A stretch of DNA of 64,000 nucleotides, from positions 32,001-96,000 of IMG/VR virus record IMGVR_UViG_3300001472_000003; one strand, 5' to 3'. Made by a program: the position numbers and the translations under genes. This document shows, piece by piece, positions 9,776 through 47,252 of this stretch. The notes beneath the pieces are model-generated. The model was not told the DNA's origin. It was given only the letters and a program-made list of their open reading frames with translations, and did not search any database. Source of the DNA: a virus. Numbering within the stretch: the stretch's first letter is position 1; each line of letters opens with the position of its first letter.

Positions 9776-10222
9776 TTATTTAGCTTTTTCTAGAGCTGGT
9801 AACATTCCAGGGAATGCTTCACTTACTAATTTATATGTAATATTTTTTATAGGACATTTTTTTTCTTTCATTCCTATTAATAATTTAGCATCATCTGGAT
9901 GTACAAATTCAATCATCTGTAAAAACATTGTCTCTTTCTTAATGCGATGTAAATTAGGACTGCCACCAGATTCAGTTGTTAATAAGTGATTGGCTTTTCT
10001 AATTTCTTTATATATAAAAGTCTCAGCATTTATTGGTTCACCTGGTTTGTATGGTGGTTCTCCTTCTGGCAAATCAAATACTGCTTTAGGATGAAATGTA
10101 AAATGTAAATAAGCTTGTAGATTAGGCACATGTTTTACATAATACTTTAATGCATCTGCTCTTTGTGTTTGGGGTTTTTTAGAGATGTCTTTTAACATCT
10201 GTGTAAATGTTGGTTTTGCCAT
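9776..10222 (-). CDS. Conserved hypothetical T4-like protein
   Basis: FDLPEGEPPY, KKETMFLQMIE.VHPDDAKLL. Confidence 0.6.
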   Translation of the reverse strand: MAKPTFTQMLKDISKKPQTQRADALKYYVKHVPNLQAYLHFTFHPKAVFDLPEGEPPYKPGEPINAETFIYKEIRKANHLLTTESGGSPNLHRIKKETMFLQMIEFVHPDDAKLLIGMKEKKCPIKNITYKLVSEAFPGMLPALEKAK

Positions 10223-11085
10223 TAGAATTCACCTATATTTTCCATTAAATTTTTTAGCTTATACTCAACAAAATAATTAAATAATTTATCTCTTTTATTG
10301 ATACTACTATTTATATAGGTATCAATGACCGATTTTTTAATATTTTGTGGTACATAATTTAAATCAATTAAGGTTTTATTTCTTACCCAATTGCGTGTAA
10401 TCTCTTCATTAATTTTAATATCATCAACACAATTTAATATCTCCTCAAGCATCTTTTTTCTAAGAGGTCTTTGTCTGCTATTAATAAAGCAATCATCTTT
10501 AGATAATACATTCGGAATACCATCGCCACGATCACCTCTAGCTATATGTTCTAACAAGTAACCTTGAGGAGAATCAGATTTAATCCATCTATTTCTTATA
10601 GGATCATATTGTTCAACGTTGGCATTTACTTGTAATTGTATAAAGTCTTTATCTGCAGATAATATAAGGATATATTCTGTTGTACTATTCATAAGCTCAA
10701 CACCATATTCCTGGCATAATGTGCCTATTATATCATCGGCTTCTGCACCAGCTATTTGCATAATCTTATATGGAAAATTATCAATAAGTTCTTGTTTTAT
10801 TTTATCCATCTTTGCAAATAAAGCTGTCCAGTCTAATTCAGATTTCTGTCTAGCTACTTTTCTATGTGCTTTATAATAAGGATAAAATTCTTTTCTCCAA
10901 TATTTTTTATCATCACAGGCAAATACTAAATCACCATACTTACTGCCAAATTTATTTTTAAATCCACGTATTGTATTAAGAACCATATGGCGCAACAGGT
11001 TCTCGGATATTTCTATATTAGTATGATTACCTATTTGCGCCATTAGATTCGCAATCATTACTTGATTCATATCTACTATTATCAT
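10222..11085 (-). CDS. rnh: T4-type RNase H / 5'-3' exonuclease
   Basis: IVDMNQ, WRKEFYPYYKAHR, EADDIIG, SADKDFIQL, GDRGDGIPN. Confidence 0.93.
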   Translation of the reverse strand: MIIVDMNQVMIANLMAQIGNHTNIEISENLLRHMVLNTIRGFKNKFGSKYGDLVFACDDKKYWRKEFYPYYKAHRKVARQKSELDWTALFAKMDKIKQELIDNFPYKIMQIAGAEADDIIGTLCQEYGVELMNSTTEYILILSADKDFIQLQVNANVEQYDPIRNRWIKSDSPQGYLLEHIARGDRGDGIPNVLSKDDCFINSRQRPLRKKMLEEILNCVDDIKINEEITRNWVRNKTLIDLNYVPQNIKKSVIDTYINSSINKRDKLFNYFVEYKLKNLMENIGEF

Positions 11086-11110: not shown

Positions 11111-11139
11111 ATTATAACATATTAATGATAATAAATCAA
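11111..11139 (-). promoter_or_regulatory. Sigma70-type early promoter
   Basis: TTGATT-N17-TATAAT upstream of rnh. Confidence 0.7.
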
Positions 11140-11144
11140 GTTAT

Positions 11145-11249
11145 TTAATTGGTTATTTTATGAATGCGATAATTTAGAACTTTATTTAATATCTCACGTT
11201 GATGATTACTAATCATTTTTTTAAATTGATATAGTGTGAAATAGTTCAT
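11145..11249 (-). CDS. Riboswitch-associated small basic peptide, 34 aa (not in ORF track)
   Basis: MNYFTLYQFKKMISNHQREILNKVLNYRIHKITN; strong SD AAGGGAGG upstream of ATG. Confidence 0.7.
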   Translation of the reverse strand: MNYFTLYQFKKMISNHQREILNKVLNYRIHKITN

Positions 11250-11277
11250 AGCCACCCTCCCTTGTTAAAGTTTGAGT

Positions 11278-11322
11278 GCGTTCCTTCAGCGAATGCCTAC
11301 TTCCGCCCTTTCGGGTGAACGT
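11278..11322 (-). ncRNA. Glutamine riboswitch aptamer (glnA motif / glutamine-I class)
   Basis: CGUUC-A-CCC(GAAA)GGG-CGGAAGUA-GGC(AUUC)GCU-GAAG-GAACG: P1 CGUUC/GAACG, P2, P3 and E-loop AGUA/GAA; GC-rich island in AT-rich DNA. Confidence 0.82.
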
Positions 11323-11327
11323 ATACT

Positions 11328-11335
11328 TATTTATG
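11328..11335 (-). promoter_or_regulatory. Late promoter variant CATAAATA
   Basis: NATAAATA core ending 5-6 nt upstream of the aptamer. Confidence 0.5.
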
Positions 11336-11561
11336 TATCATTGTTATTAGATATTTGTTTTATGGTGGTAAGACTTTTTTTCACATCAACAATATTTTCA
11401 TTCCCTATAAGATCAATTATTAATGATGTTACTCCAATATCATGATCTAATATTGCCATTTGCTCATTAAGTTTTATTAATTGTTTTTTGTAATAAGCCA
11501 ATTCTTGTTGTTTTCTTAGTCTTGATTCAATTAAATCTGCTAATGATATTATTTTACTCAT
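11331..11561 (-). CDS. Hypothetical coiled-coil protein
   Basis: 76-aa ORF with ATGA coupling to iscA. Confidence 0.6.
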   Translation of the reverse strand: MSKIISLADLIESRLRKQQELAYYKKQLIKLNEQMAILDHDIGVTSLIIDLIGNENIVDVKKSLTTIKQISNNNDT

Positions 11562-45877: not shown

Positions 45878-46504
45878 TTACTCACCAAAATAATATGGAT
45901 TCTCAACTGTATTAAAATCAGAATCTTCTTTGTTAATTACGTTTTTATTTTCTATATCTAATTTAAAAATACGATTAGCATCAATAGAATAACAATTTTT
46001 AAACATAGTAGAGGATATATTCATATCGCCATCAATAAATAATGGACTTATTTCATTTCTAAATATATTGATATTATGTTTATAATACCATACACAACTA
46101 AAAGATCCATCGATATTATTAGGTGTTTTTAATTCAATTAATTGCTTTAATAATAATTTAGTATCCCATGAATAATCAACATTATATAATGATTGTAATC
46201 TTTTAATTTCATATTCTTTTATTATACCATTATGCCATAACAATTGTCCTCCTATATCAGCAGGATGAATATTATCATTATAATTGTCAGCTGTAGGTGC
46301 TTGTTGATGTACAATACAATAATGATTATCTGGTATTGTTATGCAATCATAGGGTAATGGGCCTAATCCTGTCTTAACCTCTCTTAGTAATGATGATGTA
46401 TTATTAATATAAGTTATACTATGAGAGTAAGTACCTCTATATTCATTTAATTTAGCCAATTCAATTATTTTATCTGAGGAATATGATCCTACAATACTAC
46501 ACAT
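45878..46504 (-). CDS. Class II glutamine amidotransferase (stand-alone Gat next to queC)
   Basis: N-terminal Cys2 (MCSIVG), RG, HQQAPT, HP, WHNGII, DT, DGSF. Confidence 0.82.
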   Translation of the reverse strand: MCSIVGSYSSDKIIELAKLNEYRGTYSHSITYINNTSSLLREVKTGLGPLPYDCITIPDNHYCIVHQQAPTADNYNDNIHPADIGGQLLWHNGIIKEYEIKRLQSLYNVDYSWDTKLLLKQLIELKTPNNIDGSFSCVWYYKHNINIFRNEISPLFIDGDMNISSTMFKNCYSIDANRIFKLDIENKNVINKEDSDFNTVENPYYFGE

Positions 46505-47252
46505 TAATCATTTTCTCCCATGGTATATGTATTTGATATGGTATTGGGTCCTTCATACCTGCTTTTGCAAAACCAGCTATTCTTTCAGCACATGAAGGAC
46601 ATACACTACATGATGACCCGAATTCATTCGGATTATAACATGTAAGTGTAGATTCAAGTAAATATGTACTATTCATTTCTTTACATATTTCTATTTCTTG
46701 TGCTTTAGATAAAAGGCTAAACGGTGCCATTATTTCTACTTTATGTGTTCTATTTTGAATAGCTACAGCATTCAATGAGTCAACAAATTTTTGTGATGTA
46801 TCCCAATATCCATATTCATCATGTACTTGAAGGCCAGTAAAAAGGTATGAAGCATTAGAAGCTTCTGCTTGTGCCATAGTAAGACTTAGTAATATTAAAT
46901 TACGAAATGGCACATAAGTCTTTGGTTGTGGATCTCCTAACACATCTTTAATAGTCGGCATTGCTACATTGCTACCTGATATATTAGCTGATATAGGTTC
47001 AGCAATTTCTCCTAGTATACTGAGATCTAGAATCTTATGTCCTATGCCTAGTAACTCACAAAGTTTAGAAGCTTTAGTAAGTTCTATACTTTGTTTTTGT
47101 CCATAATTATATGATAATGCATATACATTTTCTTTACCATATCTTTCAACAAGCATCATAGTCATAATAGAAGAATCTAATCCGCCTGATAATACAGCCA
47201 ATACATTTTTATTTGTATCCGGCAACTTACTGAGTGCTTCTTTTAAATTCAT
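46497..47252 (-). CDS. queC: 7-cyano-7-deazaguanine synthase
   Basis: SGGLDS, YGQK, YVPFRN, TLTCY, CSVCPSC.ER. Confidence 0.95.
   Translation of the reverse strand: MNLKEALSKLPDTNKNVLAVLSGGLDSSIMTMMLVERYGKENVYALSYNYGQKQSIELTKASKLCELLGIGHKILDLSILGEIAEPISANISGSNVAMPTIKDVLGDPQPKTYVPFRNLILLSLTMAQAEASNASYLFTGLQVHDEYGYWDTSQKFVDSLNAVAIQNRTHKVEIMAPFSLLSKAQEIEICKEMNSTYLLESTLTCYNPNEFGSSCSVCPSCAERIAGFAKAGMKDPIPYQIHIPWEKMINV

Follow-up and report, generated by a model that had tools for sequence, protein, structure and literature searches.

A glutamine riboswitch, in phages behind a putative T4-type late promoter, precedes a family of small basic peptides in marine phages and bacteria

Introduction

We conclude that a T4-like phage with a probable marine heterotrophic host very likely carries a compact glutamine-gated module, made of a late promoter, a type 1 glutamine riboswitch and a short gene whose peptide product would act in trans. 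The module is probably mobile. T4-like phages of non-cyanobacterial hosts are already known to carry glutamine riboswitches. What appears undescribed is the family of peptides behind the switch and its link to the switch, the presence of a family member in the cultured OM43 phage Melnitz, and the copies on bacterial chromosomes; a description of the family or of its link to the switch was not found in the literature open to search.

Riboswitches have long been considered rare in phages, and a survey in 2017 listed two, both of them glutamine riboswitches of cyanophages (McCown et al. 2017, PMC5473149). The association of the aptamer with small proteins was described in cyanobacteria (Weinberg et al. 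2010, PMC2864571; Klahn et al. 2018, PMC6212724), where the gifB riboswitch has been demonstrated to be an ON switch (Klahn et al. 2018, PMC6212724). More recently, glutamine riboswitches were reported in OM43 phage Melnitz, in Pelagibacter phage Mosig and in ten pelagimyophage metagenome-assembled genomes (Buchholz et al. 2022, PMC9004378). The surprise that a first-pass annotation of the present DNA had implied, of a glutamine switch outside the cyanophages, was therefore preceded by that report, and the aptamer is also common in SAR11-like, SAR86 and SAR116 genomes.

Results

The phage and its probable host

The DNA comes from IMG/VR record IMGVR_UViG_3300001472_000003, and what we call the window is bases 32001-96000 of that record, 64 kb. 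The full record is 149.5 kb long, has direct terminal repeats and is rated complete. Its G+C content is about 30%, and all genes in the window lie on the minus strand. The gene set is that of a T4-like myovirus (gp23, gp43, gp46/47, UvsW, NrdA, RNase H and PhoH), and the phage encodes homologues of the gp55-type late sigma factor and of a gp33-like coactivator. There is one tRNA gene; csgG and tmRNA are absent from this phage.

The major capsid protein is closest to that of Stenotrophomonas phage DLP_6 (74% identity), with Melnitz at 70%; identity to the Pelagibacter phages Mosig and HTVC008M (65-66%) and to cyanophages lies at 64-66%. The DNA polymerase shares about 50% identity with those of cyanomyoviruses. 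The first-pass annotation had seen no cyanophage photosynthesis genes in the window, and this was borne out when the complete 149.5-kb genome was searched: psbA/psbD, hli and a gene for glutamine synthetase (GS) are all absent. A cyanophage origin is judged unlikely for a complete genome with terminal repeats that has no psbA/psbD or hli. The host is most likely a low-G+C marine heterotroph and is unlikely to be a cyanobacterium.

A type 1 glutamine aptamer conserved in many phages

The first-pass annotation had described a glnA-class glutamine aptamer with a three-stem junction and had proposed the Rfam glnA and Downstream-peptide models as a check. The glnA model, RF01739, gave a significant match of 49 nt (Table 1) that covers model positions 1-53 and scores 53.9 bits, where the gathering threshold is 35, with an E-value of 4.5e-9. 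The Downstream-peptide motif, RF01704, had no match in the window, nor did any other Rfam family in these 64 kb even at E<=1, and the aptamer is the sole Rfam match in the whole 149.5-kb genome. Its parts are P1 (CGUUC/GAACG), P1a (CCC-GAAA-GGG), P2 (GGC/GCU) and the conserved junction strands CGGAAGUA and GAAGGAACGC. These junction/E-loop strands and the C just 3' of P1 are all present, with posterior probability '*'.

Table 1. Positions of the features discussed (window coordinates except in the last row)
Feature	Position	Strand	Basis or source
RNase H gene (rnh)	10222..11085	-	Pfam 5_3_exonuc_N + RNaseH_C
Sigma-70-type promoter of rnh (TTGATT, 17 nt, TG-TATAAT)	11111..11139	-	scan, 10/12 matches
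34-codon ORF + stop, basic peptide	11145..11249	-	ATG start, ORF list
Putative expression platform, anti-SD helix	11253..11278	-	centroid fold + covariation
SD sequence AAGGGAGG	11263-11256	-	sequence
Type 1 glutamine riboswitch aptamer	11275..11323	-	RF01739 full-length match
T4-type late-promoter motif CATAAATA	11335-11328	-	sequence, motif scan
Burkholderiales cassettes	L330-L337, L344-L359		genomes G001, G002, G004-G009

With one strict aptamer pattern, more than 120 viral (IMG/VR) loci were found among the matches listed, and 67 distinct phage segments running from the aptamer to the ATG were aligned (alignment A3). In these 67 copies, 94.6% of the cells are paired, compared with 81.8% after shuffling and 33-53% when the partners are slid. 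Both-sided changes occur in all four pairs of P1a and all three pairs of P2, where 90-94% of the cells are paired. P1 and the junction strands do not vary in the alignment, partly because the retrieval pattern fixed them. A compensatory change is also found close to home: a C-G pair of P1a in the window is U-A in the relative L250. The E-value of the covariance model together with the compensatory changes in the closest relatives excludes a chance match, and the model match and the covariation in P1a and P2 confirm the phage element as a genuine glnA-type (type 1) glutamine aptamer. We infer that the window's copy binds glutamine.

A putative late promoter directly upstream of the aptamer

The motif CATAAATA, which the first-pass annotation had called late-promoter-like, agrees with the T4 late promoter TATAAATA at seven of eight positions. 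Its last A lies 6 nt before the first base of P1, and the motif overlaps the stop codon of an upstream 76-codon ORF. The arrangement recurs in phages: TAAATA ends no more than 12 nt from the aptamer at 59 of 99 distinct viral loci versus 8 of 90 cellular loci, and the viral spacing is mostly 5-9 nt with a mode of 6, the spacing found in the window. By eye, ATAAATA sites are also seen some 35-40 nt in front of late genes, gp23 among them. Because the phage has homologues of both gp55 and gp33, the best reading is that late transcription would start at about the first base of the aptamer; the motif is well placed, and its activity as a promoter is predicted. No terminator precedes it, so read-through from the upstream genes could also occur.

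Two further observations concern this region. ATAAATA occurs at 48 sites in the window against 86 expected, and 36 of the 48 are on the gene strand. Such scarcity and strand bias (three-quarters on the gene strand) are consistent with selection against spurious late promoters. The upstream 76-codon ORF (11331-11561, minus strand) has no Pfam match and a weak match (E 9e-4) to phrog_38282, a PHROG of unassigned function.

A predicted translational expression platform

The linker from the aptamer to the start codon is 29 nt long and contains AAGGGAGG, the strong Shine-Dalgarno (SD) sequence that had been noted in front of the ORF. GGGUG (11257-11253), at the 3' edge of the SD, is a possible pairing partner of a 5' arm, CACUC (11278-11274), and the helix between them is retained, together with P1a, in the ViennaRNA centroid. 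Among the 67 phage copies, 93.4% of the cells of the anti-SD helix are paired and two of its five pairs are changed on both sides; for example, one pair is C-G in 37 copies and U-A in 21. A separate scan recovered the anti-SD variants CACUU/GAGUG, CAUCUUU/GGAGAUG and CAAUCUUU/GGAGAUUG. The minimum free energy of the leader is no lower than that of shuffled sequences (z 0.19); minimum free energy models ignore the non-canonical tertiary contacts of the glutamine aptamer.

Transcription attenuation was rejected, as the 29-nt linker has no terminator, and control would therefore be translational. In the mechanism postulated for gifB, the ribosome-binding site is paired with the C after P1 and the bases next to it, and glutamine binding frees the site by capturing that C (PMC6212724). 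We equate the first C of the arm, just 3' of P1, with this 'linchpin' C, and the ON polarity that we assign to the phage switch is likewise inferred from the gifB model (PMC6212724).

The ORF belongs to a family found only behind glutamine riboswitches

The first-pass annotation had placed a 34-aa ORF behind the switch, and this ORF, like all the other elements that it listed, is present on the minus strand. An in-frame GTG at 11255 would yield 36 aa instead; we take the ATG as the start, since the GTG is part of the anti-SD helix and does not keep its frame in L252. By our own count, the peptide has a net charge of about +5, and, as read by eye, it is charged from end to end and has no hydrophobic span.

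A family profile built from nine seeds and grown to convergence retrieved 57 ORFs, all of which start 12-60 nt past an aptamer. Among 13,119 decoy small ORFs from the same loci there were four matches, each an upstream in-frame extension of a family ORF, and no independent ones. The window's peptide matches the profile at 8.5e-15 (54.1 bits, against the local database) and lies within the range used to define the family (about 30 aa, with a start 19-36 nt after the aptamer). The family is linked exclusively to the glutamine riboswitch.

Members are basic and 28-38 residues long. In alignment A1, positions 3, 6 and 8 are aromatic and position 7, a Gln in the window, is often Cys; a His or Tyr stands in the centre, and the C-terminal half is basic and rich in Leu and Ile. 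No residue is invariant. With this alignment, AF2 predicts a single helix over residues 3-33 (pLDDT 93.8). Pairwise dN/dS within subfamilies is 0.1-0.43. Between the window and L250, the ORF has a dS of 0.52 and a dN/dS of 0.26; rnh from the same pair has a dS of 0.62 and a dN/dS of 0.08, and the peptide is thus evolving faster than rnh. Conservation across the family and these substitution ratios mark the 34-codon ORF as a real gene under purifying selection.

A profile search of 1.84 billion representative proteins returned 27 clusters of 29-72 aa, with no fusions to larger domains. Pfam (E<=0.01), NCBIfam (E<=1) and PHROG gave no credible match to the peptide (best E about 0.2), and the ESM Atlas gave just nameless short clusters with scores of at most 0.79. 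A blastn search with the cassette against 50,697 phage records had no matches because the cassette is too short and too diverged for a DNA search. By eye, the peptide had been judged not to be a homologue of IF7, IF17 or DUF4278 proteins, and the searches agree: Pfam and NCBIfam were blank, and homology to IF7 was rejected at an hhalign probability of 0.2%.

The first-pass annotation had suggested a GS inhibitor or a lysis-timing effector. A membrane-spanning lysis protein of the holin type is unlikely: charges are spread over the entire peptide, it lacks a hydrophobic span, and AF2 predicts one continuous helix.

The family accounts for about one third of the sampled viral riboswitch loci and is the commonest among the matches listed. 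Other families behind phage switches include DUF4278/YRG proteins, a 64-aa family, the 50-aa family of Mosig, peptides ending in NPFYP, and others. Members of a 45-54-aa family ending in NPFYP or FFPYYL lie behind glutamine riboswitches both in SAR86 (L144, L150, L158, L221, L222 and L242) and in viral contigs (L017, L034, L053, L068, L091, L109, L111 and L115), and this peptide may be a marker of SAR86 phages.

A lineage-specific and probably mobile cassette

In the three closest relatives found through rnh (92%, 92% and 75% identical), the cassette is at the same site, with peptides of 34, 34 and 33 aa. A further 77 relatives were retrieved, with rnh at most 65% identical, and the flanks fetched for them have no aptamer core; the insertion is therefore lineage-specific. 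Directly past the peptide stop, a sigma-70-type promoter forms the 3' boundary of the cassette; a promoter-like -35/-10 pair, read by eye, also follows the peptide stop in L250, L251 and L252. The next gene, rnh, begins 59 nt past the peptide stop with this promoter and an SD of its own, and is not part of the switch.

Elsewhere, the peptide family lies beside unrelated genes, both in other phages and in bacteria. For example, a contig with genes of the 7-deazaguanine pathway carries a complete cassette (L340:5900-6160) that is antisense to every neighbour and consists of a late promoter, the aptamer, an anti-SD helix (CAUUC/GGAUG), a 36-aa peptide and a hairpin terminator. This cassette is apparently an autonomous, mobile unit.

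An unannotated family member in phage Melnitz

RF01739 matches Melnitz at 52.8 bits and Mosig at 50 bits. The Melnitz switch has been taken as a part of the tmRNA and as its controller, with a speculated control of lysis through a curli pore (PMC9004378). The aptamer lies at L128:2399-2447, and the tmRNA, according to Rfam, ends at 2346 or 2391 depending on the model, 8-53 nt earlier. Since the riboswitch is 3' of the tmRNA, control of the tmRNA is unlikely, and the published reading is probably wrong. Starting 22 nt past the aptamer is an unannotated 32-codon ORF of the family (L128:2470-2565, plus strand; MZ577097, about 46469-46564). For this region (MZ577097.1, about 46398-46564; L128:2399-2565), the published record has a 33-aa ORF on the other strand and a tmRNA that includes the aptamer. 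The Mosig switch lies in front of an annotated 51-aa gene, Mosig_00116. Pelagibacter phage HTVC008M has no riboswitch.

Cellular counterparts

Among cellular genomes, the aptamer consensus occurs often in SAR11-like single-cell genomes and in Pelagibacteraceae, SAR86, SAR116 and cyanobacteria. In SAR11-like genomes and Pelagibacteraceae it often occurs in tandem, in front of ORFs of 428 aa (amtB) and 476 aa (glnA), assigned by eye. SAR86 copies precede GS-like genes, porins and small peptides, and cyanobacterial copies precede DUF4278 and IF7A-like peptides.

Tandem switches before amtB/glnA-like ORFs were seen at L131, L141, L153, L162, L163 and many other SAR11-like and SAR116 loci; no published description of the SAR11 amtB/glnA tandem switches was found. 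Their linkers are long and conserved (for example, ...CCATAGCTAAGCATGA...), unlike the phage anti-SD platform, and this suggests a different expression platform, probably of the OFF type.

The peptide family itself gave chance-level matches only in 121 Pelagibacterales genomes, so that it lends no support to a pelagiphage origin, and it was absent from the sampled SAR86, SAR116 and MarineAlpha5 genomes. Two cellular contigs with the family led to a small clade of marine Burkholderiales with genomes of 1.2-2.1 Mb, and when 151 genomes were sampled evenly across that order, the family was found in this clade only. The clade includes 'Betaproteobacteria bacterium UBA3031', and a conserved divergent neighbour of the cassette, a PaaI thioesterase, has Burkholderiales and TARA relatives.

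Most of these genomes have the same layout, with a TTGACA-type sigma-70 promoter, a tandem pair of riboswitches, a linker near-identical to that of many phage copies, and a 35-aa family member. The tandem pair contains the sole glutamine riboswitches detected in each genome. In genome G006 (L332/L338, G006:C27:7700-7906, protein P0001), the ORF behind the tandem riboswitch encodes 72 aa and is an in-frame fusion of two peptide copies; the upstream element there, TGTATAAATA, resembles TATAAATA and could be read as an extended -10 or as a T4-type late promoter.

The peptide-bearing Burkholderiales genomes encode GS and PII. GlnE, the GS adenylyltransferase, was found in none of these nine genomes, compared with 29 of 32 relatives that lack the peptide; two close relatives have neither GlnE nor the peptide. 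The pattern is not independent evidence because it comes from essentially one clade and one event. GlnE was also not found in five other riboswitch-bearing marine genomes.

Discussion

We postulate that the cassette works as follows. A T4-type late promoter would start the mRNA at, or just before, the type 1 glutamine riboswitch. Without glutamine, initiation would be blocked by a helix between CACUC and GGGUG, which covers the 3' edge of the ribosome-binding site. With glutamine bound, the aptamer would capture the first C of the arm for a long-range G-C pair, the blocking helix would melt, and the 34-codon ORF would be translated. The product would be a basic, single-helix peptide acting in trans on a host or phage target. 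If the leader behaves as its sequence predicts, the peptide is most likely made solely when the infected cell is rich in glutamine.

Two accounts would deny the peptide a role of its own, and we consider both very improbable. The small ORF could be a mere leader or uORF, with the downstream RNase H gene as the regulated one. There is no terminator between the ORF and rnh, so late transcripts should indeed run into rnh. However, rnh has a strong sigma-70 promoter and an SD of its own, the family lies beside unrelated genes in other genomes, and the L340 cassette is antisense to its neighbours and ends in its own terminator. These features make a leader role and control of rnh unlikely; control of rnh by the switch was rejected on account of that promoter and SD, and purifying selection on the amino-acid sequence of the peptide also argues against a leader. 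Alternatively, the cassette could be without a role in the phage, either as a recently acquired neutral passenger or as a remnant in decay. Its site is lineage-specific, shared just with relatives whose rnh is at least 75% identical, as might be expected of a recent arrival. Yet the dS of the ORF (0.52) is near that of rnh (0.62), and over this divergence the pairing, the anti-SD helix, the length of the ORF and its frame have been kept, with a dN/dS of 0.26.

The case for a role of the peptide in nitrogen regulation is circumstantial. One idea is that it is a functional analogue, and not a homologue, of IF7 and IF17 that shuts off GS or another nitrogen-assimilation protein late in infection; we regard this as possible and, on balance, unlikely. 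The sensor and the ON logic are common to the module and gifB, and DUF4278/YRG peptides, with the domain found in IF17, lie in other phage cassettes that share its promoter and linker. In the Burkholderiales, the peptide is the sole target of the riboswitch in genomes that have GS and PII and in which GlnE was not found. IF7 is short and basic, and so is the peptide. However, alignment A1 compared by hhalign with alignment A2, of IF7-like peptides behind the same riboswitch, gave a probability of just 0.2%, and the peptide has no match to DUF4278 (Pfam, E<=0.01) or to GS_inact_IF7A (NCBIfam, E<=1), although a cyanobacterial control peptide matched IF7A at 1.4e-10. The GlnE pattern is phylogenetically confounded, given the two close relatives that have neither GlnE nor the peptide. 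In addition, Melnitz has a family member even though GS is stated to be encoded by neither OM43 nor Melnitz (PMC9004378). In its broader form, the idea is that the helix peptides are a third, non-homologous class of nitrogen-assimilation regulators gated by glutamine switches, counterparts of IF7 and IF17, which phages would deploy late against GS or another glutamine-linked enzyme; we offer this as a tentative proposal that is, in our estimate, more probably wrong than right. If it were true, the class would be common to streamlined marine Burkholderiales in which GlnE was not found and to many T4-like phages of marine bacteria, including Melnitz, the present phage and dozens of uncultured ones.

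The module has counterparts among known systems. With the gifB (IF17) leader of Synechocystis sp. PCC 6803, it shares the aptamer class, the postulated translational ON mechanism and a small protein as the target. The gifB promoter is a nitrogen-regulated host promoter. In contrast, the copy in the window is phage-borne, has a putative T4-type late promoter, encodes a product unrelated to IF17/DUF4278 or IF7, and belongs to a phage whose host is probably not a cyanobacterium. The switches of Melnitz, Mosig and the pelagimyophages are of the same riboswitch class and come from the same phage group, and the Melnitz peptide is of the same family; unlike Melnitz, the phage described here has neither a tmRNA nor csgG. 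The Downstream-peptide motif, or glutamine-II riboswitch, which precedes DUF4278 genes in marine picocyanobacteria, is likewise a glutamine sensor in front of a very short conserved ORF, but its aptamer architecture and its peptide family are different (PMC2864571; Klahn et al. 2018).

As a riboswitch, the element is ordinary. It is of interest because it offers a testable lead on a microprotein that is widespread in phages and bacteria, and because it corrects a published annotation. Our results add to the case that a self-contained module of a late promoter, a glutamine sensor and a microprotein is widespread in marine T4-like phages. The largest peptide family behind phage switches, among the matches listed, occurs without annotation in Melnitz, a cultured phage of OM43, and as the sole riboswitch target on the chromosomes of bacteria in which GlnE was not found. 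Taken together, these points open a way to study by experiment how phages that infect abundant heterotrophs of the ocean may read and exploit the nitrogen status of their hosts.
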